DNA of 64,000 bases from Bacillota bacterium. Its GTDB lineage: Bacteria; Bacillota; Limnochordia; Darwinibacteriales; Darwinibacteriaceae. Under the pieces are notes generated by a model. It saw nothing but the letters and a program-made list of their open reading frames with translations. It was not told the DNA's origin and searched no databases. Where the stretch lies: positions 6,079-70,078 of the forward strand of contig JASGVS010000021.1 of assembly GCA_030054835.1 (NCBI GenBank). Reading direction: 5' to 3'. Below, in pieces: positions 31,247 through 63,661 of the stretch (the first letter of the stretch is position 1; each line of letters opens with the position of its first letter). Position numbers and translations under genes: made by a program.

Positions 31247-31263
31247 AACATCTCCCTCCCTGT

Positions 31264-32109
31264 TTAATCTTCCATCCTAACGTCAATTCTTATCTCACCA
31301 ACATAGCTACCGGCCCGGTGTTCCCAACCTGCCTTTGTTTGCAGCCCAAAACTGAGTTCGGTACTCCCACTACCCGAAATTGTTACTCCATCCATTAAGG
31401 GTTGTGGTTCTTCCTCGACAAGCCATAACATTAGAGGTGGATAGGGGGTTGCTTCCGCCCATACGGACGGGATATCAGCCTCTTCGGTTTTATAAAACAA
31501 ACCCTTTGAGGAGAGTGTAATAGTCCAGCTTACGTTGGCCTGAACGTTAATTGTCATGGGCGTCTCCGTCTCCCAGACCCCGGGCCCAGGTATGTCCATT
31601 TCTATTTGCTCTGGATCGGTGGTAACTTCGATATAAGGCTCTACAGTGATTTCAACCGGAATGTCCGGACCATGGGGTGAGCTGAGCGTACCCTGGTAAG
31701 TACCTGCCCAAACCTCCTCATCGTACTTCACACCGAATTTCACCTCAGCGTATTCATCGCTGCCCGCAAGCAGTCGGAATTGATAGAAAGCCCACCTAAC
31801 GGTCTGTACCTGCGAATCATAGGGTGTCTCCACTAAAAGCAGGTGGTTGGGAAAGGGGTTCCCATCTGCGTCAACCAATTGGGAGAGGGTGAAATCCAGG
31901 GGCAAGGTATCCTCGCCCACCCTCACCAGCTTGAACTCTACAAACTCAACCCTATCTCGAGCAGGCGGTCCAACCAGTTCTAACTGTATGGGCCCATCCT
32001 CCACTTCGTACTGAGCCTTGTCCGCTGCCAAAGTCCAATTTGAGGCTGTAAACATGAGTATTATGAGCAGCACGAGCCATTTTGTTGGCCTCAGGCCTGT
32101 CTTCCTCAC
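31264..32109 (-). CDS. secreted protein D of secretin cluster (hypothetical)
   Basis: Start reassigned to GTG 32109 (RBS GGGGGA + 6 nt) giving signal peptide MRKTGLRPTKWLVLLIILMFTASNWTLAA; C-terminal GSYVGEIRIDVRMED. Confidence 0.55.
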   Translation of the reverse strand: MRKTGLRPTKWLVLLIILMFTASNWTLAADKAQYEVEDGPIQLELVGPPARDRVEFVEFKLVRVGEDTLPLDFTLSQLVDADGNPFPNHLLLVETPYDSQVQTVRWAFYQFRLLAGSDEYAEVKFGVKYDEEVWAGTYQGTLSSPHGPDIPVEITVEPYIEVTTDPEQIEMDIPGPGVWETETPMTINVQANVSWTITLSSKGLFYKTEEADIPSVWAEATPYPPLMLWLVEEEPQPLMDGVTISGSGSTELSFGLQTKAGWEHRAGSYVGEIRIDVRMED

Positions 32110-32184
32110 CGTCAATCCCCCGTTTCCCCTTCCATAGGTAGTATTTCCCTCATTTGCCAAACTATCCAAAGAGGGGCTGTCAGC

Positions 32185-33507: not shown

Positions 33508-33520
33508 TGTTGATCCCCCA

Positions 33521-34696
33521 TTACTTGAGCACGGGAGTGACGAAAATCAGTAACTCCTTCTCGGCTGCTAGAGTTGTATCGCTTCTAAAGAGCCAGCGGA
33601 TGATGGGAATGCTGCCCAAAACGGGTACCTTCCGGCTCTGTTCCCCCGCCTCTTCCAATGTCATACCGGCCAGTACCGCAGTCTGTCCATTCTGCAACTG
33701 CACGGTAGTGGAAACGGAAGACTGCTTCACCACCAGGTTGCTGCGGGATTCACTGACCAAATGGCTCATCTCCGGTGCGATGGTGAGGATGATTTGCTCA
33801 CCGAAAACCTGCGGTGTTACCTTCAGACTCATCCCCACTTCAACCCGCTCGACCCGGGTGGCCTTGTCACCCGAATCGGCCAGTAGCAAAATTTGCCTGT
33901 CACCCACAAACAGGTGGGCTGCCTGTCCATCGCTTACCAAAACCCGTGGATCGGCGTGGACCTTAGCCTCATTGGTCTCCTCCAGGGCCTTAAGGTTGAG
34001 GAGGAGATTGCCCAGGGCGTTTGTCTCCAAGAAGTGGAGGTTATCCCTTAGGTTCAAACCACCAGCCCAGGTTTCAGCCTTACCGTTTTGCCCCGTTGTG
34101 GCGAGCTGGAATAAGTTAGTGCCCAGCTCTTTCAAGGCCTTGGTGGACACCTCTGTAATGATCACTTGGATTTCCACCTGCTTTTGGGGTTGATCCAGCT
34201 CCTCGATGAACTTTAGAATCTTCTCCAGTTCCCTCGGCGGTGCTGTGATAGTGAGAACGCTGCTGCTCCGGTCCCCCTTAACGTAACTGAGCAGAAAGGA
34301 TGGTAGCATTGACATCACCCGGTCTGCTGTTACGTGTTTCAAAAAGACCAGCTCTGTGTCGGCCAGCTCCGCAAAGGTACTGCTGCGGGGATCGGGAAGA
34401 CCAACAAGATAAAAGTCATCGATTTTGCGAAAAGTGAAACCTCCACCGATTAGGATCAGGCGCAGCGCTTCCTCCAGGGGTACATCCACCAGGTCGGCCG
34501 TGACCACACCGCTCACAGTGGAATCGGGAATGATGTTGATCCCAGTCTGAAGTGTGATCTCATTTAAGGCATCCTTAATGCCTGTCTCAAACAAAAACAG
34601 ATTGACGCGGGGCTCCTCCACCTCCGCTGCCCGAGCCGCCCCGCCCAGCAGCACAAGAAAAACTAGTACGAGCAGGAATAAACGTCGTTCTTTCAT
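33521..34696 (-). CDS. secretin family protein B (two secretin-N domains + C-terminal secretin domain, short GspD/PilQ/RcpA-like)
   Basis: Signal peptide; N-domains (VDVPLEEALRLIL..GF.F...DDFYLV; ITAPPRELEKILKFIEELD); C-terminal secretin signature VPVLGSIPIIRWLFRSD...ELLIFVTPVL. Confidence 0.8.
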   Translation of the reverse strand: MKERRLFLLVLVFLVLLGGAARAAEVEEPRVNLFLFETGIKDALNEITLQTGINIIPDSTVSGVVTADLVDVPLEEALRLILIGGGFTFRKIDDFYLVGLPDPRSSTFAELADTELVFLKHVTADRVMSMLPSFLLSYVKGDRSSSVLTITAPPRELEKILKFIEELDQPQKQVEIQVIITEVSTKALKELGTNLFQLATTGQNGKAETWAGGLNLRDNLHFLETNALGNLLLNLKALEETNEAKVHADPRVLVSDGQAAHLFVGDRQILLLADSGDKATRVERVEVGMSLKVTPQVFGEQIILTIAPEMSHLVSESRSNLVVKQSSVSTTVQLQNGQTAVLAGMTLEEAGEQSRKVPVLGSIPIIRWLFRSDTTLAAEKELLIFVTPVLK

Positions 34697-46802: not shown

Positions 46803-46829
46803 ATTAAGGTAATCAAAAAACTCAAACTT

Positions 46830-46960
46830 TTTCACTCCGAATTTCCATCGGAAAGCGGGAGACCCATCTTTTTTTGGGGTGAATCCTGTTCATCAGGTAG
46901 GGCAGCTTGGGAGCCCGAACCCGTCAGCTAACCCCGTAGGAGTACCCCAGGCGTAGTGCT
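46830..46960 (+). promoter_or_regulatory. c-di-AMP riboswitch (ydaO/kimA class, RF00379-like)
   Basis: Contains the conserved ydaO-motif blocks GGGGTGAATCC, GGGAGCC and CCGAACCCGTCAGCTAACCCCGTAGG in the expected order; lies 5' of the mrp operon on the same strand. Confidence 0.65.
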
Positions 46961-47194: not shown

Positions 47195-47773
47195 GTGAGT
47201 AAACGGTCCCTAACCCTAGCAGTTTTACTTTTGGCCTTTTGGCTCATCGCTGCGGGCAGCCTCAGCTGGCAGCATATTCTGGCCGGCGCAGTACTCAGTG
47301 TCATTACGATCTGGTTCTGGCACGACCTGGGGCCCCAGCTTCCTCGACTCCTGTCCTGGAGAGAGCTGGTTCAGCTGGGGAAATGCCTCATTCTCTTAAT
47401 CTATTATGTACTCCAATCCAACTTTGCAGTAATTAAAACGATAGTGTTTAACGTCCCCCGGGTGAGCCCCGTGTTTCTAGTGCTGGATCCCCCCTTGGAA
47501 ACCAATTGGGGCAGAGTGTTTTTGGCAACCTGCATCACTTTGACACCAGGGTCAGTCACGGTCGACGTTGACCCGAAGTCGGGGCGCTTCATCATCCACG
47601 CCCTGACTGAAGAAACCGCCATTGGTGTCATTTATTGGCGGATGATCGATGAAATAAGGAAGTTAGAAACTTACAGGCAGAGGAGGAGTGCCCATGTGGT
47701 GGATACTAGCAGGGCTTATGGTTCTGATTCTCGCAGTGCTCTTGCGGGCAATTCTGGGACCAACAGTAATTGA
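47195..47773 (+). CDS. mrpE: Mrp/Mnh antiporter subunit E (MbhA-like)
   Basis: GTG start with GAAGGTGG RBS; N-terminus LTLAVLLLAFWLIAAGSLSWQHIL typical of MrpE; 192 aa with ~30-aa C-terminal extension overlapping mrpF. Confidence 0.8.
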   Translation: MSKRSLTLAVLLLAFWLIAAGSLSWQHILAGAVLSVITIWFWHDLGPQLPRLLSWRELVQLGKCLILLIYYVLQSNFAVIKTIVFNVPRVSPVFLVLDPPLETNWGRVFLATCITLTPGSVTVDVDPKSGRFIIHALTEETAIGVIYWRMIDEIRKLETYRQRRSAHVVDTSRAYGSDSRSALAGNSGTNSN

Positions 47774-48005
47774 TCGCATGATCTCTATCAACGCCATAAC
47801 AAGTAAAATCAGTGCACTGATCCTGCTCACTGCGTTCGCTGGGGGCGAGTACGCCTTTGTGGATGTGGCTTTTGTATTTATGCTCTGCGGTTTTGCGGGC
47901 AGCCTCTGGATCATTAGAGTGCTTACCCCGGGAGACTGGCAGCTGAGAATACCGGGGCTGGCCGGATTTGAAGGTAACGGAGAGGAGGAAAAGGCCCATG
48001 ATTAA
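47694..48005 (+). CDS. mrpF: Mrp/Mnh antiporter subunit F (MbhB-like)
   Basis: GPTVIDRMISINAITSK matches MrpF signature GPT..DR..A.D; ATG 47694 with AGGAGGAG RBS. Confidence 0.8.
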   Translation: MWWILAGLMVLILAVLLRAILGPTVIDRMISINAITSKISALILLTAFAGGEYAFVDVAFVFMLCGFAGSLWIIRVLTPGDWQLRIPGLAGFEGNGEEEKAHD

Positions 48006-48309
48006 TTTTCTGGTCAACATCTGCTTTGCAGTATCATTGGTCGGCTTTATCCTAGGCGTTGTGGGCCTTTTTAGGTTTCCCGATCCCTACACGCGGATGC
48101 ACGCCATCTCGGTGGGCGACACACTGGGCATGGGTTCTGCCGTAATTGGGCTCCTGCTGCTCAGCCCCACCTGGATGATCCGACTCAAGCTCATCGTTAT
48201 GCTGTTTCTATTCTGGTTAATCAACCCCACCATGTCCCATTTGGTGGCCAAAGCGGGTTTATTACACGGAACGGAGCCTGTCCAGGGCACCAGATTGAGA
48301 AAGGGGTAG
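47998..48309 (+). CDS. mrpG: Mrp/Mnh antiporter subunit G (MbhC-like)
   Basis: RMHAISVGDTLG motif typical of MrpG; ATG 47998 with GGAGGAAAAGG RBS. Confidence 0.8.
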   Translation: MINFLVNICFAVSLVGFILGVVGLFRFPDPYTRMHAISVGDTLGMGSAVIGLLLLSPTWMIRLKLIVMLFLFWLINPTMSHLVAKAGLLHGTEPVQGTRLRKG

Positions 48310-48313
48310 GCAG

Positions 48314-48583
48314 ATGCAGTTTGTAGCTGTAGATTATTGGATTATGGCCCTGTCCTTAATCTTAATGGGCGCATCCTTGGCCCTGTTCTTTATTAAAGAC
48401 CTTATCCACGCAGTCATTGTCTATGGCGCCTATTCAGTCACCATGGCCGTTATTTGGCTGCTGATGAATACGCCTGACCTAGCCATTACGGAAGCGGCTG
48501 CGGGAATCTGTACCACTGTAATGATGATGGTGGCCATTTACCGCACGCGCCGCCCAAAAAAGGGGAACAAGGATGAAAATTAG
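48314..48583 (+). CDS. MrpB-related small membrane subunit (DUF4040, MbhD-like)
   Basis: 89 aa, 3 TM; position and size as MbhD in Mbh/Mrp modules. Confidence 0.65.
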   Translation: MQFVAVDYWIMALSLILMGASLALFFIKDLIHAVIVYGAYSVTMAVIWLLMNTPDLAITEAAAGICTTVMMMVAIYRTRRPKKGNKDEN

Positions 48584-48869
48584 ACACATTTTCGTTGCAG
48601 TCGTTGTCCTTTTGGCCCTGTTTGGCATGCTTTTGATGGTGGCCGAGCTGCCTCCTTACGGCAGCGCGGACAATCCTGGGCAGAACATGGTTGCCCAGCG
48701 TTACATCAATGATGCGCTGGAAGATACGGGCGTGCCCAACATGGTTACTGCCGTTGTCCTGGATTACCGCGCCTATGACACCATGTTTGAAACGATCGTT
48801 CTCTTCACCGCCGCTTTAGCAGTGGTGGTAGCGCTCAAACCAGCCGAAGAGGAAGGTGATGACGCATGA
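48573..48869 (+). CDS. small membrane subunit (MbhE-like)
   Basis: 98 aa, 2 TM, overlapping neighbours by 4-11 nt within the mrp module. Confidence 0.6.
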   Translation: MKIRHIFVAVVVLLALFGMLLMVAELPPYGSADNPGQNMVAQRYINDALEDTGVPNMVTAVVLDYRAYDTMFETIVLFTAALAVVVALKPAEEEGDDA

Positions 48870-49291
48870 GAGACTTTATCTTAAAACGCATGATTGCAGT
48901 CATCTTGGCTTTTATCTTTGTTTATGGTTTCTATGTTATCCTCCACGGCCACATTTCTCCCGGCGGGTCTTTTGCGGGGGGAATTATCGTGAGCTTAAGC
49001 TTTATTGCCTTTGCCACAGTCTACGGCATTGACAAAGGCAAGGAAAAACTCCCCGAGAAATTCCTGGTCTGGGTAGAAAGCTATGGGACTCTCTGGTACG
49101 GCCTGATGGGTCTGGTAGGCATCTGCAAAGGGGCCCCGTTTCTGGCCAACAAGCTGGCTGGAATTGACTTAGGTGTACCGGGTACGCTCTCCTCCGGCGG
49201 CCTGATCGGGCTCATCGGCTTCGGCGTGGGAATTAGGGTAGCAAGTACCATGATCACCTTATTTTACACGTTGATGGAGGGAGATGCGTGA
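48866..49291 (+). CDS. Mrp/Mnh antiporter subunit B-like (MbhF-like)
   Basis: 141 aa, 4 TM; MnhB-domain-like; ATGA overlap with upstream gene. Confidence 0.65.
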   Translation: MRDFILKRMIAVILAFIFVYGFYVILHGHISPGGSFAGGIIVSLSFIAFATVYGIDKGKEKLPEKFLVWVESYGTLWYGLMGLVGICKGAPFLANKLAGIDLGVPGTLSSGGLIGLIGFGVGIRVASTMITLFYTLMEGDA

Positions 49292-49665
49292 CAACGTTCC
49301 TTGAGAAACTTCTCATAAATTATCCCTATGTTATTTCCGTAATCCTATTTTTCATCGGCACACTCATCATCTTGACCCAGTCTAATCTATTCAAAAAGCT
49401 TCTGGGCATCAACGTGATGGAAACGGCCACTTTCCTGATGTTTATTGCCGCGGGCAACATCCGGGGCGGCGCTGTTCCTATCCTTAGTGATACGAACGCC
49501 CCTTACATCAATCCCCTCCCGTCCGCTTTGATGCTTACGGGCATTGTGGTCAGCATCAGCGTCACCGCCTTTGCCCTGGCGCTAATTCTGCGTCTTTACA
49601 GGGAATACGGTACGGTGGACGCCAATGAAATCGCCCGGTTGAGAAATGGGGGGATGGAAAAATGA
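49288..49665 (+). CDS. mrpC: Mrp/Mnh antiporter subunit C (NuoK-like)
   Basis: 125 aa, 3 TM, NuoK/MnhC-like conserved Glu-containing helices (NVMETATFLMFIAAGN). Confidence 0.8.
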   Translation: MTTFLEKLLINYPYVISVILFFIGTLIILTQSNLFKKLLGINVMETATFLMFIAAGNIRGGAVPILSDTNAPYINPLPSALMLTGIVVSISVTAFALALILRLYREYGTVDANEIARLRNGGMEK

Positions 49666-51158
49666 TGACAAGCTGGACTACCCATCTACCTGTATTTGTT
49701 GTCATCCTACCCCTTTTTGTAGGCTTTATTCTACCCACCCTGGCCCGCAGACTGAGGCTGGTTGAGAACTTGGTTATCGCAGTTGAAGTAGTCAGTTTCG
49801 TTATGGCAGCTGCCCTTGCGGTACTCCTTTTCAAACAGAACGGCAGCCCCATTCCCTATGCCATGGGCGGCTGGCCCGCTCCCTGGGGAATCCGCATTAT
49901 TGCCGATAACTTGGGCGTCCTGTTCCTGTTGGTTATAGCCATTGTAGGTCTGCCTATTGCCCTCTATACCAAGGGTAATTTAAAGGAAGAAGTTGGCGGG
50001 CGAAGCAGAACGGCTCGTTTCTACGCCCTCTATCTGCTGCTGATGGGAGCCCTGGCCGGGATGGCCGTCACCAACGACCTTTTCAACGTCTTTGTGTTGG
50101 TAGAGGTAGCCACCCTCAGCGCCTGCGGCCTGGTGAGTGCCCATAGAAATCCCAGAGCGGCAGAAGCTGCTTTCAACTACCTGATCCTAGCCACACTGGG
50201 TTCGGGCCTGGTCATGGGCAGCATCGGCTTTCTGTACATCACAACCGGTCATTTAAACATGGAGTTTGCGGCCCGGGAGCTTGCCCAAGTTTGGCAGCAC
50301 AGCCCACATGTGGTCTGGATGGCGGCCAGTTTTATGCTCACTGGCTTTGGCGTGAAGGCGGCTATGTTTCCGCTCCACGTTTGGCTGCCCGACGCCCACT
50401 CCATGGCACCCACTCCGGGCAGTGCGGTTTTGTCTGGACTAGCGGTTAAGGGCTACTTGATCTGCCTTTTGAAGATTTTGTACAACGTATTCGGCCAGAC
50501 GCTCATGCGCCACTTCACCATGCACCACGTGTTAACGGCGGCAGGCATCGCAGCCATTCTCGCCGGCTCCATCCTGGCCTTGAGACAGGATGAACTGAAA
50601 CGCAGATTGGCCTATTCCACCGTTGCCCAGGTTGGCTACATTATTCTCGGCTTCGGTTTTGTGAATCAAAGGGGATTAGCTGGCTCCCTCTTTTACCTGG
50701 CGAGCCACGCCTTGATCAAATCCACCCTGTTCCTGACGGCCGGTGCCATTATCAGTGCCACGGGCAAGACCAAGGTGAGTGAACTAGCGGGTGTTGGCCG
50801 GAAGATGCCCTTGACGATGGGTGCCTTTACGGTAGCCAGTTTGGGGCTCGTGGGTATTCCCCTCTTTTCCGGTTTTGTGGGCAAATGGCACCTGCTATTG
50901 GGCAGCTTCGAATCGGGCAACTTCGCTGCTGCCGCGGTGATCCTGGCAGGCAGCGTGTTCTGCGCAGCCTACCTATTCCCCATCCTGCGTAACGCATATT
51001 TCCAAGAGGCACCGGGCGAGAATTGGCAGGATCCCGGTATGGCTCAAAGGGCCGCCTTTGTGCTGTTGAGTGCAGCCATCATCTTTTTTGGCATCCTGCC
51101 TACACCACTACTAACCCTGGCTCAGCGAGCCGCGGCGGATCTGCTGTTCTTGCAGTAG
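49662..51158 (+). CDS. mrpD: Mrp/Mnh antiporter subunit D (NuoM/N-like proton-conducting subunit), copy 1
   Basis: 498 aa, 14 TM, conserved FPLHVWLPDAHS and Lys/Glu helices. Confidence 0.85.
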   Translation: MMTSWTTHLPVFVVILPLFVGFILPTLARRLRLVENLVIAVEVVSFVMAAALAVLLFKQNGSPIPYAMGGWPAPWGIRIIADNLGVLFLLVIAIVGLPIALYTKGNLKEEVGGRSRTARFYALYLLLMGALAGMAVTNDLFNVFVLVEVATLSACGLVSAHRNPRAAEAAFNYLILATLGSGLVMGSIGFLYITTGHLNMEFAARELAQVWQHSPHVVWMAASFMLTGFGVKAAMFPLHVWLPDAHSMAPTPGSAVLSGLAVKGYLICLLKILYNVFGQTLMRHFTMHHVLTAAGIAAILAGSILALRQDELKRRLAYSTVAQVGYIILGFGFVNQRGLAGSLFYLASHALIKSTLFLTAGAIISATGKTKVSELAGVGRKMPLTMGAFTVASLGLVGIPLFSGFVGKWHLLLGSFESGNFAAAAVILAGSVFCAAYLFPILRNAYFQEAPGENWQDPGMAQRAAFVLLSAAIIFFGILPTPLLTLAQRAAADLLFLQ

Positions 51159-51177
51159 GGGCGAGGAGGAGGAGAAA

Positions 51178-52623
51178 ATGATAAATCTGATCTTAGCCTT
51201 ATTAAGCGGAGTGGTTGGGGCACTTCTCACTGCCCTCATTCCCGCTAAAAACGACCGCCTGCGCACAACGGTTGTGTTTGCAGCCTTGGCATCCGCCCTG
51301 ATTTTCAGCTGGCGCACCGCCCTGCTCGTCTTCGCCGGAGCGGAGTTGGAGCTCACCTTTGGGCTCGCAGGTCTAACGTGGCGTTTGGCCCCGGATCCGC
51401 TGGGAGCCATGTTTGTCCTGATTGCCTCCACGCTCTGGTTGGTGGCAGGTCTTTATTCAGCGGGCTACATGGCAGGAAAAAGGAACCTCAAGAGCTATTA
51501 CTCCTTTTTCCTACTCGCCAACAGCATCACCTTAGGGGTAGCCTGCGCAGGCAACTTGGTCGCTTTATACTTGTTCTATGAGCTTTTGACATTGTCAACC
51601 TATCCTTTGGTAATTCACGAACGTTCGGCGGAAGCGGTGAAAGCTGGCGCAAAATACATCATTTACAGCCTATCAGGCGCAGGAGCGCTGCTGGCCGCAA
51701 TAGTCATTACCCATGCATTAACGGGCCATTCCGATTTCACCTCTGTTCCCGTTTTGGCAGGGCAGACTGGGAAAGGCCTGAACTGGCTGTTAGCCCTGTT
51801 TATTGCAGGTTTTGGTGTTAAAGCGGCGATTATGCCGCTCCACCGCTGGCTGCCAGAGGCCATGGTGGCACCGACGCCCATCAGTGCCCTGCTCCATGCG
51901 GTCGCAGTGGTTTATTCCGGGGTCTACGGGATTATTCGGGTTGTATACACCGTGTTTGGGCCTGAACTCATGTCCAGCCTGACCTTTGCCAAGGCTTTGC
52001 CTTGGATCGCTTCCTTTACCATTCTAGTTGGCGTCATGATAGCCACCAGGCAGGATGTACTGAAGAAACGCTTGGCTTACCATACTATCAGTCAGCTATC
52101 CTATATACTCTTGGGCGCCTTTACGCTCCAGCCTTTAGGCCTGAGCGGTGCCATGCTGCACATGATCAGCTATTCCCTTCTCAAAGTAACCCTTTTCTTC
52201 TGTGCGGGCATCATCGCCGAACAGACAGGTGAAACGGTCGTGAGCCGGATGGGAGGGGTCGGCTGGAGCCTGCCCAAGACGATGGCCGCCTTTGGCGTGG
52301 CCAGTCTGGGTATGGTGGGCATGCTGCCGCTGAACACCTTTTGGAGTAAGTACTACCTGATGCGGGGAGGCGTTGCCTCAGGCAGCTGGCCCCTGGCATT
52401 AGTCTTGATTACGAGCGGAATCATCAACGCTGTCTGCTTTATTCCCACAGTGGTTGCAGCCTTCAAGGGAGAAAGCCAAGGACGTGTCCATTTAGAGAGC
52501 GGCAGCAGCGTTTCCCTCATGCTCGTTCCTACCGTGCTTTTAGCAGGTATTTCCCTTTTAATTGGCCTCTGGCCCGGCCTAGTCTGGGACGGGGTGCAGG
52601 CTGTTGTTAACTCGTTTTTCTAG
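51178..52623 (+). CDS. Mrp/Mnh antiporter subunit D-like, copy 2
   Basis: 481 aa; MPLHRWLPEAMVAPTP motif; NuoM/MrpD family. Confidence 0.85.
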   Translation: MINLILALLSGVVGALLTALIPAKNDRLRTTVVFAALASALIFSWRTALLVFAGAELELTFGLAGLTWRLAPDPLGAMFVLIASTLWLVAGLYSAGYMAGKRNLKSYYSFFLLANSITLGVACAGNLVALYLFYELLTLSTYPLVIHERSAEAVKAGAKYIIYSLSGAGALLAAIVITHALTGHSDFTSVPVLAGQTGKGLNWLLALFIAGFGVKAAIMPLHRWLPEAMVAPTPISALLHAVAVVYSGVYGIIRVVYTVFGPELMSSLTFAKALPWIASFTILVGVMIATRQDVLKKRLAYHTISQLSYILLGAFTLQPLGLSGAMLHMISYSLLKVTLFFCAGIIAEQTGETVVSRMGGVGWSLPKTMAAFGVASLGMVGMLPLNTFWSKYYLMRGGVASGSWPLALVLITSGIINAVCFIPTVVAAFKGESQGRVHLESGSSVSLMLVPTVLLAGISLLIGLWPGLVWDGVQAVVNSFF

Positions 52624-52634
52624 CGAAAGGAGGT

Positions 52635-54545
52635 ATGGTCATGCTGCTTTTACTACTTGTGCTGCTTCCCTTGGTGGGGGCACTGGCTCTGCTTTTTGAT
52701 AAAAAGCGGGCATGGAATATCCCCCTGCTCACGTGCAGCCTTGTTCTGGCACTGGCCATTTTCGGGCTCAAGCCAGTCTTTGGGGGAGGTACAATCAGCT
52801 ACACACTGAACCTGCCGGGGCCCTTCGCCCCTGTACTGCAGGCCGATCCCCTCACAGCCATTTTCGTCATACTCGCGGCTCTCCTGTGGTTCGCGGTAGC
52901 CATCTACGCGCCCAAGTACATGGTACATGAAGGGAAGGTCAAGTTCTTTGAACTGGTCACCCTGCTCACCTATTCGGCTGTTCTGGGCGTCTTTCTAGCA
53001 GGCGATCTTGTGACAATGCTCCTGTTCTTTGAACTGATGACAATTACGTCTTTCTTCTGGGTTGTCCATCGCTGGAACCGGGAAGCGATCAGAGCCGGTT
53101 ACTTTTACCTGTTCTTCAGCATCATCGGCGGACTGCTCATCGCGCTAGCCATAGTGTTTCTGGGTGCATCTGCGGGACTACCCCTGCCCCTTGGGGCTGG
53201 TAGGCTGACGCCCTCTAACCCAACTCTTTTTGCTTGGGCTATTGGTCTTCTGCTAGCAGGTTTCGGCATCAAGGGCGGGATGGCCCCGCTCCATGTGTGG
53301 CTTCCCCACGCCCACTCCAACGCCCCCACACCGGGTAGTGCCCTGTTATCCGGTCTGCTCATTAAAGTGGGTGCTTACGGCTTGATCCGTGTGGGCGAAC
53401 TGGCCGGCTGGGGTATCACTTTAGGAGCCGGTACCGCTTGGCTCAGTACAACCATAACGCTGCTGGGCCTTTTGACCATGTTGGTTGGTGTGGCCGCAGC
53501 TCTGCTGCAGGGTGACGGCAAAAGGCTCCTTGCCTACCACAGCGTGAGCCAGATGGGTTATATTATCCTGGGCATTGGTGTCGGTCTCTACCTGGGACCG
53601 GATGGCGGACTGGGACTGGTCGGCAGCGTTTATCATATTGTGAACCACGCCCTCTTTAAAGCCACCCTCTTTTTGGGTGTGGGCGTTATCTACATCCATA
53701 CTAAAGAAACGGACCTTTACAAACTCGGCGGTCTTTGGCGTCGTTTCCCCGTGACAGCTGCGCTCATGTTCCTCGCTGCCCTGGGCATTGCGGGAGCTCC
53801 CGGGCTGAATGGTTATGCTAGTAAGACGGTGCTGCACCATGCGGTAAGCGCCGCGGCAGCAAGCGGAGAGACATGGCTGATTTGGGTAGAGAGGCTCTTT
53901 AACCTGGTGGGAATCGGCACCGCCGCTTCCTTCGCTAAGCTTTTTTACCTCATCTTCCTCGGTAAACCGACGGAGCTGGAAGTGGCGGAAAACGAATCAC
54001 CCCGCCTGCAGATAGCCATGGGGGTGTTAGCAGCTGTTATGCTCACCATCGGGCTTGCACCCCAGCTGTTCCCTAACGTTTTGGGTCTGCCCGCAGCGGA
54101 GTCTTTGGGTTTTGCTAAGCTTGAACCCATCCCAGGTTCCCTCTTCTGGAACTTCACCGACCTGAAGGGTATTGCCATCACCCTGGCCTTAGGTATTGGC
54201 GTGTGCTGGGCTGGGCTAAAAAGCGGTGCATTCCACTGGCACCCGCCCCTTTGGCTCAGTCTGGAAGGCCTGGGCGGTAAGGTATACCTGGCAGTGGCCT
54301 TCCTCTGGACAAAGGGAATCGCCCTTTACCACAGCCTAACCAAAGGCCTGGGCAGGGCAGGAAGATTCTTGGCAGGCAAGGTGTCCGCCGCTTACAGCGA
54401 CTTGGTCAACCCTAAGGATGGGGCGGCCTTAACAGGCATCAGCGCAACTGCTGCACTTTTGATCCTGACACTACTGGCCCTAATTGCCTGGTACACCATG
54501 ATCAATCCGGTGTTTAATGTAGTGAAGATTGTGCTTCAGTGGTAA
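52635..54545 (+). CDS. MrpA/NuoL-like large antiporter subunit (third NuoL-family subunit)
   Basis: 636 aa; APLHVWLPHAHSNAPTP motif, extra C-terminal TM segments; RBS GGAGGT. Confidence 0.8.
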   Translation: MVMLLLLLVLLPLVGALALLFDKKRAWNIPLLTCSLVLALAIFGLKPVFGGGTISYTLNLPGPFAPVLQADPLTAIFVILAALLWFAVAIYAPKYMVHEGKVKFFELVTLLTYSAVLGVFLAGDLVTMLLFFELMTITSFFWVVHRWNREAIRAGYFYLFFSIIGGLLIALAIVFLGASAGLPLPLGAGRLTPSNPTLFAWAIGLLLAGFGIKGGMAPLHVWLPHAHSNAPTPGSALLSGLLIKVGAYGLIRVGELAGWGITLGAGTAWLSTTITLLGLLTMLVGVAAALLQGDGKRLLAYHSVSQMGYIILGIGVGLYLGPDGGLGLVGSVYHIVNHALFKATLFLGVGVIYIHTKETDLYKLGGLWRRFPVTAALMFLAALGIAGAPGLNGYASKTVLHHAVSAAAASGETWLIWVERLFNLVGIGTAASFAKLFYLIFLGKPTELEVAENESPRLQIAMGVLAAVMLTIGLAPQLFPNVLGLPAAESLGFAKLEPIPGSLFWNFTDLKGIAITLALGIGVCWAGLKSGAFHWHPPLWLSLEGLGGKVYLAVAFLWTKGIALYHSLTKGLGRAGRFLAGKVSAAYSDLVNPKDGAALTGISATAALLILTLLALIAWYTMINPVFNVVKIVLQW

Positions 54546-54639: not shown

Positions 54640-54872
54640 ATATACAAAAATCGATGCAACGACGATGAACAGGAGTAGTACGGAAACCTTTTCAGAGAGT
54701 TGTTGGGTGGTGGAAAACAACATTCTTCCGGAACTCGCCTGGGAGTTGCTGGAGTGAATTTGATTAACCCCAGCCGGTCATTCCGTTATCATGTCGAGGG
54801 GGCGGCTGTTTGCCGTCAATTAGAGTGGTACCGCGGATCTTCCGTCTCTAGCTAGAGAGGAAGATTTTTTAT
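54640..54872 (+). promoter_or_regulatory. T-box riboswitch leader (Leu, specifier CUC)
   Basis: Stem I with GA/K-turn (GATGAAC...GAGTAGTA) and AGAGA element, specifier GAA-CUC-G (54734-54736), T-box sequence AATTAGAGTGGTACCGCGG (54818-54836), terminator GATCTTCCGTCTCTAGCTAGAGAGGAAGATTTTTT. Confidence 0.9.
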
Positions 54873-54907: not shown

Positions 54908-57319
54908 TTGCCAAAATACAATCCACAAACAATAGAAAAGAAATGGCAGAATATCTGGGACAACGAGCAGGTTTTTCGCACCAGCGACGATCGCAGTAAG
55001 AAGAAATTCTATGCTCTGGTGGAGTTCCCCTATCCATCGGGGGAAGGCCTGCATGTGGGGCACCCACGCCCTTATACTGCCATGGACGTAGTCGCCCGTA
55101 AACGCCGCCTGGAAGGTTACAATGTCCTCTTCCCCATGGGTTGGGACGCCTTCGGACTGCCGGCGGAGAACTACGCCATTCAAACTAAGATCCATCCGTC
55201 AATTGTTACGGAGCAGAACATTGCCCGCTTTAAGCAGCAGCTGCAATCCTTAGGTTTTTCCTTTGATTGGTCCCGGACAGTGAACACTACTGATCCCCAC
55301 TATTTCAAGTGGACCCAGTGGATCTTCCTCAAGCTGTTCGAAAAGGGCCTTGCTTACAAAGCGGAAATGCCCATCAACTGGTGCCCCCGCTGTAAGATCG
55401 GCTTGGCCAATGAAGAAGTGGTGGACGGAGCCTGCGAGCGCTGTGGTAACGAAACGGAAGTCAGGGTGAAGAACCAGTGGATGCTGAAAATTACCGCTTA
55501 CGCCGAGCGGTTGATTGAAGATCTGGATCTGGTCGATTACATTGAACGGGTTAAAATCCAACAGCGCAACTGGATCGGCCGCTCCGAAGGGGCGGATGTA
55601 ACCTTCAAACTGAAAGATACCGCTGAAGAGCTGGTAGTCTTTACAACCAGGCCCGATACGTTGTTCGGCGCCACCTATATGGTCATTTCGCCTGAACATC
55701 CCATTTTGGCGAAGCTGCAGGATCGCATTACCAACATGGATGAAATCGAGGCTTACCAAAGGGAAGCTCGGAAAAAGACCGAATTCGAACGGGCCGAGTT
55801 GAACCAAGATAAAACGGGTGTGCCCGTGAAAGGCGTAACCGCTATCAATCCGGTTAATAACGAAGAGATTCCGGTTTGGATCTCCGACTACGTACTGATG
55901 AGCTACGGCACTGGAGCGATTATGGCTGTTCCCGGCCACGACCAGCGGGACTGGGAATTTGCTAAAGAGTTCGATCTGCCCATTATTGAAGTGGTCCAGG
56001 GCGGAGATGTGACCCAGGAGGCTTACACCGATACCCAGAGCGGAATAATGGTCAACTCGGGCTTCCTCAACGGATTGGAAGTAGCAGAGGCCCAGAAGAA
56101 GATTATTGCCTGGCTCGAGGAAAAGGGTCTCGGTACTCCTAAAGTCAACTACAAGCTGAGGGACTGGGTTTTCTCCAGACAGCGCTACTGGGGTGAACCG
56201 ATTCCCCTTGTTCACTGTAAAGAATGCGGCTGGGTCCCGGTTCCCGAGGAGGAACTGCCGGTACGCCTGCCCCAGGTGGCCAATTACGAGCCTACCGACA
56301 CTGGTGAATCGCCCCTGGCTAACATTAGGCATTGGGTAGAAACCAGCTGCCCCAAATGCGGTGGCCCGGCTGAGCGGGAAACGGATACCATGCCCCAGTG
56401 GGCCGGTTCTTCCTGGTACTTCCTGCGCTACACCGATCCCCATAACGATAACGAACTTGCGAGCCGGGAAAACCTTGATTACTGGCTGCCGGTGGATTGG
56501 TACAACGGTGGTATGGAGCACACAACCCTCCATCTTCTGTACAGCCGCTTCTGGCATAAATTCCTCTACGACATTGGGGTTGTCCCCGGTCCCGAGCCTT
56601 ACCAAAAGCGGACCAGCCACGGCATGATCTTGGGTGAAAACAATGAGAAGATGTCCAAGTCCAGGGGCAACGTGGTTAATCCCGATGACGTGGTGAACGA
56701 ATACGGAGCGGATACGCTGCGCATGTATGAGATGTTTATTGGCGACTTTGAAAAGAGCGTACCGTGGAGTACGGATGGGGTGCGGGGCTGCCGCCGCTTC
56801 CTAGACAGGGTCTGGAAACTGCAGCCCATGCTCGTGCGGGGTACAGCTTACAGCTCTGAACTGGAAACGCTCATGCATCAGACGATAAAAAAGGTAAGCA
56901 ATGACTACGAAGAACTCAAGTTCAACACAGCCATTGCCCAACTCATGACCTTCGTGAACGAAGTGTACCATCTGGGCCGGATCAATGAGGCGGAAATGAA
57001 AACCTTCCTGATTCTGCTCAACCCGGTTGCTCCCCACATTACGGAGGAGATCTGGGAAAGGCTCGGCTTTCCGGGCATGCTCAACGAACAGAGCTGGCCC
57101 ACTTACGACGAGGCCAAAACAATTGCCCAGACCATCGCCATCGGCGTCCAGGTTAACGGGCGAGTTCGGGGCGAGATCACGGTCAACATCGACGACCCGG
57201 TGGAAGTGGCTAGGCAAAAGGTGATGGAAAACGAAAACGTTCGCCGCATGATCGAAGGCAAACAGATTGTCAAAGAAATCTATGTTCCAGGCCGCATTTA
57301 CAACATCGTGGTAAAATAA
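54908..57319 (+). CDS. leuS: leucine--tRNA ligase
   Basis: 803 aa; HVGHPRPYT (HIGH), KMSKS present; N-terminus near-identical in pattern to B. subtilis LeuS; TTG start with AGGGAGG RBS. Confidence 0.95.
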
Positions 57320-58947: not shown

Positions 58948-59020
58948 ATGCTGCTCCCTCTTTTCCAATTGATACAAATACCCTTGGTACGCATTTGGAT
59001 TGTCTGTTTTGGATTATAGC

Positions 59021-59617
59021 TTAAGGCCTGATGACCTTCGTGGCCTCCATTTGGCTTTGGGCTATCTCGTACATATTGGTGACAGAACCCACTCCCAGCT
59101 CAGATTTGAGCTGGTAAAAATCCAAGCATGTACCACAACTAAGGATTTCCACTCCCTGTTCGGCCAACTTCTTCAGGTCGGCTAAACTGTCCGAACCCTC
59201 AACTGCCAGCTTCACTCCCCCATTATACAACAAAACCTTGCTGGGTAACTGGGGAAGTTCCGTGAGGGCATAAACAAAGGATTTCATCAGAATCTTACCC
59301 AACTCAGGATCGCCCGCCCCCATCTCGTTCGCAGAGATAACCACAACCGTCTTGTCCCCTTGTCCCGCGGAGCTGGGCGACTCCTGCCCTGCTTCTTGTG
59401 GGCCATCGACCATGATGGTGATCACATGCTGATCCGCGCTAACCGTCTTCAGCTCATAGCTGAGGGCCATCTGCTTGGCCATCTTCTCCAGGTTCTGCAG
59501 GGCAATCTCGTTATCTACAATAACCTCCAGCACACCTTCCGTGTTTTGCAGTGCTTTTTTCGCTTCAATAACCGGCAGGGGACAGTCTAAACCTCTGGCA
59601 TCAACTGTTTTTTTCAT
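59021..59617 (-). CDS. yedF: selenium metabolism protein YedF (TusA-like + DsrE/DsrF-like domains)
   Basis: N-terminal TusA motif [11 protein letters not shown] and C-terminal DsrE-like domain; 4-nt overlap with selD. Confidence 0.8.
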
Positions 59618-60636
59618 CGCACCATAATCTCCTTTGCTTTCCTTTCCACGATCTCGCCCACAATCGCAGCAGGGAGATCTAACTTACTCAGCTCCGCCAC
59701 TAACTCTTCCCCAACTGCCCTAGGGACGCTTACCAACAGCCCTCCTGAGGTTTGGGGATCCAAAAGGAGCTCCTCCATGGCAAACTCCACATTGGATCCA
59801 AAATCAAGATAGTTCGCCAAATGGTTGCGGTTCCGTTGGGCTGCCCCAGTGATCAAAAACTCCGCCGCATATTCCAGTGCTTCAGGAATATGTGGAATCT
59901 GCTCTGTATAAACCACCGCCGAGACTTCCCCTAACATTTCGTGGAGATGGCCCAAAAAGGCAAATCCGGTCACATCGGTTGAGGCGTGGACTGGAAACTT
60001 ACGGATTATCTCAGCTGCGTATTTGTTCAAGGTTGTCATGGACTTAACCGCCTGCTCCATGGCCTGTGGCGAAGCTTCACCCACGCGCTCAGCGGTGCAC
60101 ACTATCCCTACGCCAAGGGGTTTGGTTAGAATCAAGACATCGCCAGGCCGGGCGCCCCTGTTGGTGTAAACCTGTTTGGGATGCACAATTCCAGTCACAG
60201 ACAGGCCGTATTTCACATCCACATCGGTGATGGAATGGCCGCCGGCCAAGACTGCGCCTGCTTCCACCACTTTTTCACTGCCGCCTCGCAGCACTTGACC
60301 TAAGATTTCCACATCCATTTTCGCAGGAAAGCAAACAATATTGAGCGCTGTTTTGGGCTCGGCACCCATGGCGTAAATATCGCTCAGGGAATTGGCCGCA
60401 GCAATCTGACCGAACAGATAAGGGTCTTCCACCATGGGCGGGAAGAAGTCCAAAGTCTGAACAATAGCTAAGTCCTCGGTAAGCTGGTACACTGCAGCGT
60501 CGTCGGCATGCTCAAATCCCACGAGAAAATTGGGGTCCGCAACCCTAGGCAGTCTAGCTAAAATGTCTTCCAGGACCGCCGGTCCAAGTTTAGCTGCTCA
60601 ACCACCGCCTGTGCAGAAACGAATCTCGTCACTCAT
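59614..60636 (-). CDS. selD: selenide, water dikinase SelD, selenocysteine-containing (in-frame UGA at 60598-60600)
   Basis: ATG 60636 (RBS GTGAGGTGAG) gives [26 protein letters not shown]...[20 protein letters not shown], the canonical SelD N-terminus with Sec replacing Cys; ORF track only shows the part after the UGA. Confidence 0.85.
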
Positions 60637-60647
60637 CACAGCTCACC

Positions 60648-60899
60648 TCACTTCAGTTCCACAAGCCGTTCGTACTTCAAACCTAGTTTCTGGGCTTGCT
60701 CTAAAAGCCTGTTCCTATCTTCCGGCCCAATCAGCCAGGCCAAACCGCACTGGGCACTTATGGCCACGGGCATGGGTATCAACCTGCCTGGCAGGCCCAG
60801 CTCTTTACATGCCCGTTCAAAAGCCATGGCCTCAGTTGTGCTGTGAAAGGTAAGCACAGCCTGCACCTCAGCCATCTCCTTCCGGTCCGTATTCTTCAC
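60648..60899 (-). CDS. DUF3343-family small protein (putative Se/S relay protein)
   Basis: ~80 aa, pattern seen next to yedE/yedF genes; start GTG 60899 or ATG 60875 uncertain. Confidence 0.6.
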   Translation of the reverse strand: MKNTDRKEMAEVQAVLTFHSTTEAMAFERACKELGLPGRLIPMPVAISAQCGLAWLIGPEDRNRLLEQAQKLGLKYERLVELK

Positions 60900-62025
60900 T
60901 GATCTCTGCCAGGGCTTGTACTGCCACTTCCAGCTCCGCTTTGCTGTTGAAATGGGAAAAACTAAAACGGACCAATCCCGTTTTATCCGTCTGCAGTGCC
61001 CGGTGCATTAGGGGGGCACAGTGCCCACCGGAACGGGTGGCAATATTGTATTTCTCCGCCAGAAGCTGACTCAAAAAGCTGGAATCCACACCGGCAATAT
61101 TGAGGGCCACAATTGGGCAGCGCTCCTGGTCCGTGAAATCACCGTAGACGGTCACTCCAGGGATTTCCTTCACCTCTGCAAAGAAAAATTGGGTTAGCTC
61201 CCCTTCAACCTTCCGCACGTGAGCCAGTCCTACCTCCCGCAGATAACGCACTCCTGCGGCTAAACCTGCAACCCCTGGGGTATTCAGAGTACCCGCCTCC
61301 AGTGCTTCGGGCATAGTCTCGGGATGGGTTTTGGAAAAGGTCTTAATTCCACTTCCGCCCGTTTTTAGGGGACGTAGTTTTAAGCCTGGCCGCACATAAA
61401 TCCCGCCCACTCCTTGGGGACCCAATAGGGCCTTATGCCCTGTGAAACAGAGGATGTCAATGGGCTGTTTAGTTAGGTTATAAGGATACCAGCCTGCAGT
61501 TTGGGCCCCATCTATGATTGAAACCAATCTCTGACGCTGACAAAAATCTAATACATAATCCAAATCAATGACATTGCCTGTCACGTTGGAGGCGTGGGTA
61601 CAGACAACCGCTTTAGTGTTGGGCTGGCTAGCTGCAGCTAAAGCGCTAAAATCCACTCTGCCCTGGTAATCGGCGGGTAAAACGGTTACTTCCACGCCCC
61701 TTTTCTGCAGAAGATAAAGGGGTCTGAGCACGCTGTTATGCTCCAGCTCAGTTGTGACCACATGATCCCCCGGCTCCAACAGACCCAGCAGGGCCATATT
61801 TAAACTCTCGGTGGCGTTGGCAGAAAAGGCAATTTGGCTGGGATCGGAAGCGCCAAAAAACTCGGCCAACTCCCAGCGGGCTTGATAGATCAGCCTACTT
61901 GCCGCAAGGCTCATCCCATGGACTCCCCGCCCGCTGTTGCCCGCCGTTGCGAGGGCAGAACAGACTGCCTCAATAACGGCGGCAGGCTTGGGATAGGATG
62001 TGGCTGCTTGATCAAGGTATATCAC
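60868..62025 (-). CDS. class-V aminotransferase-fold cysteine desulfurase / selenocysteine lyase-like protein
   Basis: MIYLDQAATSYPKP N-terminus, PLP-Lys region FTGHKALLGPQGVGGIYV, conserved C-terminal Cys (GGHCAPL); GTG start with AAGGAAAAGGGGGG RBS. Confidence 0.85.
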   Translation of the reverse strand: MIYLDQAATSYPKPAAVIEAVCSALATAGNSGRGVHGMSLAASRLIYQARWELAEFFGASDPSQIAFSANATESLNMALLGLLEPGDHVVTTELEHNSVLRPLYLLQKRGVEVTVLPADYQGRVDFSALAAASQPNTKAVVCTHASNVTGNVIDLDYVLDFCQRQRLVSIIDGAQTAGWYPYNLTKQPIDILCFTGHKALLGPQGVGGIYVRPGLKLRPLKTGGSGIKTFSKTHPETMPEALEAGTLNTPGVAGLAAGVRYLREVGLAHVRKVEGELTQFFFAEVKEIPGVTVYGDFTDQERCPIVALNIAGVDSSFLSQLLAEKYNIATRSGGHCAPLMHRALQTDKTGLVRFSFSHFNSKAELEVAVQALAEISEEYGPEGDG

Positions 62026-62044: not shown

Positions 62045-63661
62045 TTACCAAACTACTACTGCACCGTCAATCCTGGGCTCGGTAGCCCCTACCAACACGT
62101 CTCTGTCCCTGAACACGATCTGACCCCTGCCGTAACCCACGTTTTCTTTCGTCACGGTCACTTCGTGGCCCCGCTTCACCAAACCGTTAATGATCTCCGC
62201 CGGCAGAGTGTTCTCCAAATTGACCTTTCTTCCCCGCATCCACTGCCAGCGGGGCGCATCCAAGGCTGCCTGGGGGTTATGGGCAAAGTCGACGAGGTTC
62301 ATCACAACCTGGACATGCCCTTGGGGCTGCATAAACCCACCCATGACGCCAAAGGGACCCACAGGCTGGCCGTCCTTGCTGAGGAAGCCGGGAATAATTG
62401 TATGGTAGGGACGTTTGTTAGGCTCTAGGCAGTTATCATGCTCGGGATCGAAGGAGAAGTTGTGGCCGCGGTTGTGCAGGGCAATACCGGTACCTGGCAC
62501 AACCATACCCGAGCCAAAACCGTTGTAATTGCTTTGAATGAGGGAAACCATGTTTCCTTCTCCATCGGCTGCAGCCAGATAAACGGTACCGCCGTCCTGT
62601 TCCCTGCTGGGCAGGGGTTCCAGGGCCCGTTCCCCAATTCTTCTGCGCCTCTCGGCGGCCCAATCGTCTGAAAGCAGCTCTTCCACTGTCACCTTCATCT
62701 TCTTTGGATCGGTCACATAGCGCTGGGCGTCCTCAAAGGCCAGCTTGATCGCCTCAATCTGCCGGTGATATGTTACAACATCGTTCTTCTCAGTGAAGTC
62801 AAAGCCCTTTAGGATGTTGAGCGCCATCAAGGCCACAATCCCCTGACCGTTAGGCGGTATTTCCCAAACCTCATAACCCCTGTAATCCACCGAGATAGGA
62901 TCCACCCATTCAACGTCAAAACGGCTCAGATCCTCTCCCCGCAGGTAGCCGCCGTGCTGCCGGGAAAAGGCGTCGATTTTCTCCGACAACTCACCGCTGT
63001 AAAAGGCCTCTGCACCCGTTGCCGCAATCAAAGCTAATGTCTCTGCATGATGGGGCAGCCTAACAATTTCACCTGGCATGGGCGCCCTGCCGCCGGGAGC
63101 GAACGTGTCAAACCAAGGTTTGAATTCTTCTCCCTTATACCGGCTGTAAACTTGAGCCGCCCGCTGCCAGCCCCTGCTCAAGAGGTTAGAAACGGCATAG
63201 CCTTCTGCGGCGTAGTTAACAGCCGGGGCAAACACATCTGTTAGGGGCAGTCTACCAAAGCGCTTAGATAGGGCAGCCCAGCCGGCCGGGGCACCCGGCA
63301 CATTCACCGGAGCCAAACCATAGCGCGGTATTTCCTTATGTCCCGCTTGCTTTAGTCTATCAATGGAAATGAGCTCAGGGGAAGGCCCACTGGCATTTAA
63401 CCCGTACAGCTCGCCTTCGAAATGGACTATGGCGAACAGATCACCGCCAATACCGTTGGAAGTAGGTTCGCACACTGTTAAACAGGCGGCAGCAGCTAAT
63501 GCTGCATCCACAGCGTTGCCTCCCCGTTTCAGCATGTCCATTCCCGCCATGGCTGCAAAGCGATTGGACGTGGCAACCATGCCCCTGCGTCCGTAGGCGG
63601 GATAGCGGAAACTAGGATACGCTTGCCCTATATCATGGAAATTCATATTAATTGGACTCAC
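62045..63661 (-). CDS. ggt: gamma-glutamyltranspeptidase
   Basis: GGT family blocks (GNAVDAALAAAACLTVCEP, catalytic Thr in GGTVYLAAAD, GMVVPGTGIALHNRG); start GTG 63661 or ATG 63646. Confidence 0.88.
   Translation of the reverse strand: MSPINMNFHDIGQAYPSFRYPAYGRRGMVATSNRFAAMAGMDMLKRGGNAVDAALAAAACLTVCEPTSNGIGGDLFAIVHFEGELYGLNASGPSPELISIDRLKQAGHKEIPRYGLAPVNVPGAPAGWAALSKRFGRLPLTDVFAPAVNYAAEGYAVSNLLSRGWQRAAQVYSRYKGEEFKPWFDTFAPGGRAPMPGEIVRLPHHAETLALIAATGAEAFYSGELSEKIDAFSRQHGGYLRGEDLSRFDVEWVDPISVDYRGYEVWEIPPNGQGIVALMALNILKGFDFTEKNDVVTYHRQIEAIKLAFEDAQRYVTDPKKMKVTVEELLSDDWAAERRRRIGERALEPLPSREQDGGTVYLAAADGEGNMVSLIQSNYNGFGSGMVVPGTGIALHNRGHNFSFDPEHDNCLEPNKRPYHTIIPGFLSKDGQPVGPFGVMGGFMQPQGHVQVVMNLVDFAHNPQAALDAPRWQWMRGRKVNLENTLPAEIINGLVKRGHEVTVTKENVGYGRGQIVFRDRDVLVGATEPRIDGAVVVW

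Follow-up and report, generated by a model that had tools for sequence, protein, structure and literature searches.

A predicted in-frame selenocysteine codon in the selD gene of an uncultured Bacillota from biogas fermenters

RESULTS

The selD locus and its gene neighbourhood

The window, by which we mean the whole 64-kb stretch of DNA analysed, carries on its minus strand a co-directional and tightly spaced block of genes encoding a gamma-glutamyltranspeptidase, a class-V cysteine desulfurase, a DUF3343 protein, SelD and YedF (Table 1). The selD reading frame runs from an initiator ATG (60636-60634, minus strand) to a terminal TGA (59616-59614, minus strand) that shares bases with the yedF ATG in an ATGA overlap. 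Upstream, GAGGTGA at 60649-60643 matches the extended Shine-Dalgarno sequence over 7 nt, separated from the ATG by a 6-nt spacer and overlapping the stop codon of the DUF3343 gene (TGA at 60650-60648), from which it is 11 nt to the selD start. For the DUF3343 gene itself, gene callers give a protein of 72 aa with its start at about 60866.

The first-pass annotation of this DNA had placed the selD start at the same ATG, with a ribosome-binding site and 11 nt past the upstream stop, and had read an in-frame UGA within the gene, which it assigned to a selenium cluster with yedF, DUF3343 and a class-V desulfurase or Sec lyase. The coordinates and sequence strings that it gives are all correct, direct reading and translation bear out the UGA, and profile searches confirm each of the three neighbouring families. 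It had also stated that ORF callers shorten SelD, and the mechanical ORF and the database entries are indeed both 302 aa in length.

In a genome scan with one genome per species, which yielded 80 SelD loci, the gamma-glutamyltranspeptidase gene was present at the selD locus in 10 (L001-L010), a synteny confined to this clade. The whole block is found in these ten loci, in six assemblies nearly identical to the window (L143-L148), where a MurJ/MATE-like gene precedes it, and in three further metagenomic lineages (L149-L153). The selD start of these last three is likewise preceded by GAGGTGAGG.

Table 1. Features of the selD locus, with positions numbered along the window
Feature	Positions	Strand	Evidence and remarks
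Gamma-glutamyltranspeptidase	62045..63661	-	PF01019, 522.9 bits; 19 nt upstream of the desulfurase gene
Class-V PLP cysteine desulfurase, selenocysteine-lyase-like	60868..62025	-	TIGR01977; SclA model 357 bits, below its cut-off
Se/S carrier, DUF3343 (PF11823)	60648..60899	-	80.1 bits; longest ORF 83 aa
selD translation start (Shine-Dalgarno, spacer and ATG)	60634..60649	-	Read from the sequence
selD, full-length CDS	59614..60636	-	340 residues plus stop; predicted Sec at codon 13; TIGR00476, AIRS/AIRS_C and 3U0O matches
In-frame UGA, predicted Sec codon (residue 13)	60598..60600	-	Aligned with catalytic Cys17 of E. coli SelD
Lys16 codon (AAA)	60589..60591	-	Equivalent to Lys20 of E. coli SelD in the glycine-rich N-terminal loop (3U0O alignment)
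Apical hairpin GGACC-GGC-GGUCC, predicted SECIS core	60573..60585	-	Stem invariant in 10/10 Sec forms and L149-L153
Apical hairpin with two flanking pairs (C60588-G60570, U60587-G60571)	60570..60588	-	Pairs across a U/U mismatch; -7.9 kcal/mol (27-nt piece)
Outer stem of the first-pass annotation (AGCUAAA 60595-60589 with UUUAGCU 60562-60556)	60556..60595	-	Not conserved
Shortened ORF, 302 aa, GTG start at 60522	59614..60522	-	Mechanical ORF list and public databases
YedF, sulfurtransferase-like selenium-metabolism protein	59021..59617	-	TIGR03527, 225.4 bits; coupled to selD via ATGA

The read-through product as a SelD protein

For profile and homology searches, a Cys was put in at codon 13 of SelD. 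The resulting read-through product scored 393.8 bits against TIGR00476, the NCBIfam SelD equivalog (cut-off 125), with residues 6-306 matching model positions 4-308, a match that begins upstream of the TGA and spans it. It also reached 327.4 against 299 for NF002098, and contains the Pfam domains AIRS (PF00586, 88.5 bits) and AIRS_C (PF02769, 69.7 bits). The best match among solved structures was E. coli SelD (3U0O, E = 4.7e-65), on which GGG-U13-AA-K16 aligns with GAG-C17-GC-K20, placing Sec13 on Cys17 and Lys16 on Lys20. In the E. coli enzyme both Cys17 and Lys20 have an established catalytic function, and the alignment thus puts the TGA at the catalytic Cys position of SelD, with the partner lysine three residues on. 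A canonical SelD N-terminus with Sec at the catalytic Cys, as had been suggested from the translation of this stretch, agrees with both the TIGR00476 match and the 3U0O alignment.

The 302-aa ORF lacks both Sec13 and Lys16. The closest public entries (P0001-P0003), which are 99% identical, have this same length and begin MGFEHADD, and the six assemblies nearly identical to the window carry the same 302-aa selD gene call. Database versions of other Sec-type relatives begin at one or another downstream start, among them the protein clusters of the three further metagenomic lineages, which are shortened forms of 325-326 aa.

Conservation of the in-frame TGA

When the codon aligned with position 13 was read in each of the 80 SelD loci of the genome scan, TGA was found in 9, which are the nine closest orthologues (L001-L009), and Cys codons in the other 71, more distant loci (TGT in 50 and TGC in 21). 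The SelD proteins of these nine are 73-77% identical in amino acid sequence to that of the window, and identity among the ten Sec forms (the window plus the nine) ranges from 71% to 91%. The in-frame TGA is also kept in the three further metagenomic lineages, at 68-73% identity to the window. Judged from these alignments, the pairing of TGA with Cys codons and the conservation of the TGA are clearly beyond chance, with the agreement of the Sec forms being partly the shared ancestry of one clade.

A single base change would restore a Cys codon, and Cys is the residue of most homologues, so that the TGA has to be weighed as a misread or misassembled TGC or TGT. The same TGA, however, stands in all six independent assemblies that are 99.9% identical to the window, which come from biogas-fermenter and other metagenomes of at least four sequencing projects, and it recurs in the twelve other lineages, leaving an error as a vanishingly improbable source of this codon.

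The region upstream of the TGA bears the marks of coding sequence. The FCxGGG motif is conserved in the Sec forms, and its three Gly codons show third-position variation only across all ten (alignment A1, columns 4-12), indicating that one and the same reading frame is translated on either side of the TGA. The full Sec-type SelD motif with all three Gly codons is TTYTGYNNNGGNGGNGGNTGANCNGCNAAR; a metagenome scan with TTYTGYNNNGGNGGNTGANCNGCNAAR, in which one of the three is missing, returned 62 chance matches and no SelD. In the window, TGA is the terminal stop in 10 of 38 family-supported genes. It is thus an ordinary stop in this genome, and the predicted recoding would be site-specific, with no variant genetic code.

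These observations also bear on whether the UGA could be a true stop, either in a decaying pseudogene or ahead of an N-terminally truncated SelD made from a downstream start such as the GTG at 60522. Such a product would be exactly the 302-aa protein of the gene calls and databases, and an N-terminally truncated A. aeolicus SelD was stable enough to be deposited in the PDB (2ZAU, 311 residues), but it would be without both residues aligned with the catalytic Cys17 and Lys20. The downstream starts, moreover, differ among relatives (MGFEH, MADPNF, MAKLPR and MGPEVL) with none of them conserved, and the 12 codons that precede the TGA are in frame and under protein-level constraint in 13 lineages at 68-91% identity, behind a strong Shine-Dalgarno sequence and ATG of their own. 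Even with Sec machinery not seen in the window or the examined flanks (see below), which would suit a true stop, we regard this explanation as highly improbable.

A hairpin downstream of the UGA and the bacterial SECIS criteria

The apical hairpin downstream of the UGA has a stem of 5 bp, starting 12 nt past the UGA, and a GGC loop (GGA in some relatives) that is closed by a C-G pair and lies 17 nt from the UGA. The bare 5-bp hairpin has a predicted energy of -5.8 kcal/mol. In the first-pass annotation it was drawn as the inner part of a nested SECIS-like hairpin, with an outer stem around it. This nested hairpin is the minimum free energy structure of a 48-nt piece that begins with the UGA (-12.7 kcal/mol), yet with z = -1.2 against dinucleotide shuffles its stability is not unusual, and it loses to other folds when 64 or 141 nt are folded.

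Published criteria for bacterial SECIS (bSECIS) elements give an apical loop of 3-9 nt on an upper stem of 4-16 bp, a G at loop position 1 or 2 (mostly N1-G-[G/U]-N-N2, with N1 and N2 paired), a UGA-to-loop distance of 16-37 nt and a minimum free energy of -7.5 kcal/mol or below (PMC13188914). The selD hairpin falls within all four, with its GGC loop, 5 bp plus two pairs, 17 nt, and -7.9 or -12.7 kcal/mol. A permissive bSECIS-type test that we built from published rules was passed by 15.4% of the window's 1960 TGA triplets and is unspecific; at this chance pass rate a SECIS-like hairpin by itself is weak evidence, as it is likewise considered in the literature. Rfam (release 15) searched over the window at gathering thresholds gave no match to the selD hairpin region, and no SECIS family was reported at E <= 10 over positions 60480-60660. 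This does not weigh against function, as it only says that no curated family reaches threshold.

Comparative evidence for the apical hairpin

Across the ten Sec forms, RNAalifold keeps only the apical GGACC-GGN-GGUCC hairpin and its two flanking pairs. The apical helix has 95.7% of its cells paired, with all five core pairs invariant and the flanking pairs kept in 8/10 and 9/10 of the Sec forms. The stem being invariant, no covariation was found in the apical hairpin among these ten sequences, and there is little room for compensatory changes because several of the paired bases fall at codon positions 1 or 2 of conserved residues.

The codons of the stem are more telling than its pairs. They read GGA-CCG-GNG-GUC-C, with the third base of CCG forming the first loop G, and GGA, CCG and GUC are identical, synonymous sites included, in 10/10 Sec forms. 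Of 111 other conserved codons with four- or six-fold degeneracy, only 1.8% show such identity across the ten, with a mean codon identity between pairs of 0.38. All five pairs are in register in 10/10 Sec forms, as against 2/71 Cys forms (Fisher p = 3.5e-11, a value that overstates independence, since all Sec forms belong to one clade). Of the Cys forms, L010 is the closest, shares the synteny and makes the best natural control; it encodes an identical hairpin peptide with other codons, and its energy is -2.4 versus -7.9 kcal/mol. From this codon comparison, the hairpin is under synonymous-site constraint in the Sec forms only.

One Cys form (L066) still has the hairpin.

Three other pairings were considered and set aside. 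The outer stem AGCUAAA/UUUAGCU has 58.6% of its cells paired, a level reached by shuffles, and is missing from the RNAalifold consensus. A second hairpin, hairpin B (GGCGGUCCUGGAA-GACA-UUUUAG...GACUGCC), shares its 3' arm with the apical hairpin and is the minimum free energy structure of the 64-nt piece (-13 kcal/mol, loop GACA), so that in the window sequence it is predicted to be the more stable of the two; it is 77% paired in relatives, shows no change on both sides, has two stem positions broken in 8/10 sequences, and is likewise not conserved. RNAalifold also proposed a long-range GGNGG/CYNCC pairing around the UGA, the columns of which are protein-fixed Gly and Leu-Pro codons, with one pair broken in 4/10.

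The nested hairpin of the first-pass annotation is therefore upheld in its apical part, which is conserved and within the published bSECIS limits, and its outer stem is specific to the window sequence, where it forms but probably lies outside the functional element. The minimal E. coli fdhF element lies about 11 nt downstream of its UGA and, given such a spacing, the apical hairpin of selD could persist with the UGA in the ribosomal A site. The outer stem, starting 3 nt past the UGA, would be unwound at that point.

Search for the selenocysteine machinery

We did not find tRNA-Sec in the 64-kb window, where one tRNA is present (Arg-CCT), and profile searches of all window ORFs of at least 150 aa revealed neither SelA nor SelB. 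Two ORFs of 481 and 636 aa at 51178-54545, which by size were suspected to be selA and selB, proved to be Mrp/NuoLMN-type antiporter subunits. ARAGORN detected no tRNA-Sec near selD of the nine closest orthologues or of L066, and selA, selB and tRNA-Sec were absent from the flanks of those nine and from the 6.5 kb past the window end, as covered by one of the near-identical assemblies (L143). Among 75 mechanical candidates for other single-TGA split ORFs in the window, none but selD had a convincing coding context.

With Sec machinery not seen in the window or the examined flanks, we also considered that the UGA might be read through without Sec, whether by insertion of Cys via the Sec machinery at low selenium, by near-cognate Trp, or by generic read-through stimulated by the hairpin, as proposed for insect SPS1-UGA. 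Read-through of this kind, aided by an adjacent hairpin, has been discussed for the homologous SPS1 UGA of Hymenoptera (PMC4561486), but the site here is a catalytic position at which only Sec or Cys occurs in the prokaryotic survey of that same study. The 10 of 38 family-supported genes that end in TGA argue against codon reassignment, and in both its G-G loop signature and its spacing the hairpin matches bSECIS elements that depend on SelB. Read-through without Sec is thus very improbable.

Proposed mechanism of selD expression

In our judgement selD, the gene for selenide, water dikinase (selenophosphate synthetase), is very likely a 340-codon gene in which UGA codon 13 is recoded to selenocysteine. 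Translation would start at the ATG at 60636, coupled to the upstream Se/S-carrier gene via GAGGUGA. At the UGA (60600-60598), the hairpin 12 nt downstream would recruit SelB-GTP-Sec-tRNASec, and Sec would be inserted in place of termination. Sec13 and Lys16 would then lie in the glycine-rich N-terminal loop, as Cys17 and Lys20 do in E. coli SelD. Since SelD makes the selenophosphate needed for Sec-tRNASec, the enzyme would depend on its own product, in what we infer to be a positive feedback. Its operon partners, the Sec-lyase-like desulfurase, the DUF3343 carrier and YedF, plausibly deliver selenium to SelD.

A broader proposal is that the block may be dedicated to selenium salvage, leading from gamma-glutamyl- or glutathione-bound compounds to SelD, and that the GGACC-GGN-GGUCC triloop may represent a compact class of SECIS; we consider this unlikely.

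DISCUSSION

Implications for annotation

The predicted Sec recoding of this SelD is an ordinary case of a well-known class, as SelD is already established as a selenoprotein, and it leaves current understanding unchanged. Its main value is in annotation, by way of a corrected gene model for selD. The public entries for the window selD and for most of its Sec-type relatives are N-terminally truncated ORFs of 302-326 aa without the catalytic Sec and Lys. As a consequence, both an intact SelD and the Sec-decoding trait would be under-called by automated pipelines in this uncultured lineage from biogas fermenters. A Sec-type SelD would further imply a full Sec machinery and a dependence on selenium supply, which bears on the trace-element dosing of anaerobic digesters. 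Taken together, the Sec clade, its nearest Cys sister (L010) and the hairpin-bearing Cys form (L066) cleanly illustrate, in natural sequences, how a SECIS is gained, is lost and decays at synonymous sites.

Comparison with known systems

A neighbourhood of Sec lyase, DUF3343, SelD and YedF genes has already been described (Lin et al. 2015, PMC5322559), and here too genes of these four families lie side by side in one orientation. Compared with that arrangement, this clade adds a gamma-glutamyltranspeptidase gene just upstream in the same orientation; the term 'gamma-glutamyl' has 0 occurrences in that paper.

The consensus bSECIS, as in the bSECISearch model with E. coli fdhF as prototype, is a stem-loop directly 3' of the UGA with G-G first in the loop, and the selD hairpin agrees in these respects. 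It differs in being a triloop closed by C-G with only 5 uninterrupted pairs, and it has no evident counterpart of the bulged U of the fdhF SECIS. E. coli SelD (3U0O) belongs to the same family, with the AIRS N- and C-terminal domains, and its GxGC(G/A)xK loop aligns residue for residue with the selD product of the window, but the E. coli gene has Cys in place of the UGA and no SECIS. Mammalian SEPHS2 (SPS2), a SelD homologue, is itself a selenoprotein and so is dependent on its own product; its SECIS, unlike the bacterial one, is of the eukaryotic type, located in the 3' UTR and decoded with SBP2 and eEFSec.

The closest parallels are the Sec-containing SelD proteins of other bacteria. FdhA and SelD were found to be the most widespread bacterial selenoproteins, Clostridia included (Zhang et al. 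2006, PMC1794560); in a more recent review SelD takes second place (PMC9312934). About 19% of prokaryotic SelD genes have Sec, always at the same position, and they are usually mis-annotated (Mariotti et al. 2015, PMC4561486). The known Sec forms (PMC1794560, PMC4561486) have the UGA at the same site in the glycine-rich loop, with Cys in other orthologues, and likewise contain the SECIS within the coding sequence just past the UGA, their genes often being mis-annotated as truncated. The predicted SECIS core described here, with a 5-bp stem and a 3-nt loop, lies towards the lower limit of the sizes allowed. Otherwise nothing essential distinguishes this selD from the known Sec-containing genes, and its host is an uncultured Bacillota from biogas fermenters.

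Gene neighbourhood of selD

When comparing gene order around selD, we found a gamma-glutamyltranspeptidase gene in all ten loci of the window's clade (10/10) versus none of the 70 other SelD loci (0/70). In the window, it is separated by 19 nt from the Sec-lyase-like desulfurase gene downstream on the same strand, and in six near-identical assemblies (L143-L148) it is itself preceded by a MurJ/MATE-like gene with a 1-nt gap. The term 'gamma-glutamyl' is absent from the 2015 survey of selenium-linked genes (PMC5322559). One of these near-identical contigs (79 kb) also encodes a LysR-family regulator (L143:825-1730), outside the window to its right and some 8 kb upstream of selD; a selenium-related LysR subfamily was proposed by Lin et al. 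2015 (PMC5322559).

At the other end of the operon, yedF and an AAC(3)-like acetyltransferase gene are separated in relatives by an additional gene encoding about 270 aa (L003:4985-5803, L149:3078-3875 and L152:3106-3939); in the latter two loci it is called as a xylose-isomerase-like TIM-barrel protein (PF01261). Since yedF and the acetyltransferase gene are only about 43 nt apart in the window (58978-59020), the extra gene is absent there. The SelD reading frame at L007:6001-7125 is 34 codons longer than in relatives, and a 436-aa NCBI SelD entry (P0004) has two internally duplicated segments, one example being a 46-residue repeat, which looks like an assembly artefact.

Other loci in the window

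The T-box leader and leuS are convergent with the selD operon (-), and the products of the antiporter operon include an MrpE-like subunit and three MrpD/NuoLMN-like subunits (498, 481 and 636 aa). A secretin gene was also found; the genome's relatives are labelled Bacillota. It is adjoined on the same strand by three large ORFs (512, 301 and 440 aa), for which a Pfam search at E <= 1e-6 gave no matches; a possible reading of the whole region (29708-34696, minus strand) is a locus for pili or secretion in a diderm Firmicute lineage.

Features in the window and in related SelD loci
Feature	Location	Strand	Evidence or remark
Secretin gene	window 33521-34696	-	PF00263
c-di-AMP (ydaO-type) riboswitch	window 46825-46957	+	89.6 bits
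Multi-subunit Mrp-type cation/proton antiporter operon	window 47195-54545	+	downstream of ydaO-type riboswitch
T-box leader	window 54656-54852	+	127.8 bits; directly upstream of leuS
leuS	window 54908-57319	+	TIGR00396, 1041.9 bits
Gamma-glutamyltranspeptidase gene	window 62045-63661	-	also L001-L010, L143-L153
SelD with Cys codon and hairpin	L066:6034-6100		Candidatus Caccovicinus sp. MAG, JBJELD010000016.1

SECIS-like hairpins in Cys-form SelD

The Candidatus Caccovicinus selD (L066) encodes Cys as the catalytic residue (TGT) but still contains, without any change, the Sec clade's 17-nt CTTGGACCGGCGGTCCT hairpin (-10.1 kcal/mol). This may be a fossil SECIS that outlived a recent switch from Sec to Cys, or it may be due to chance. 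A second Cys-form SelD (L016, TGC) has a GC-rich hairpin with 5/5 pairs in the same register as that of the Sec clade. If the L066 hairpin is a fossil SECIS, it resembles the SECIS remnants after Sec-to-Cys conversion in Fig. 4 of PMC1794560.
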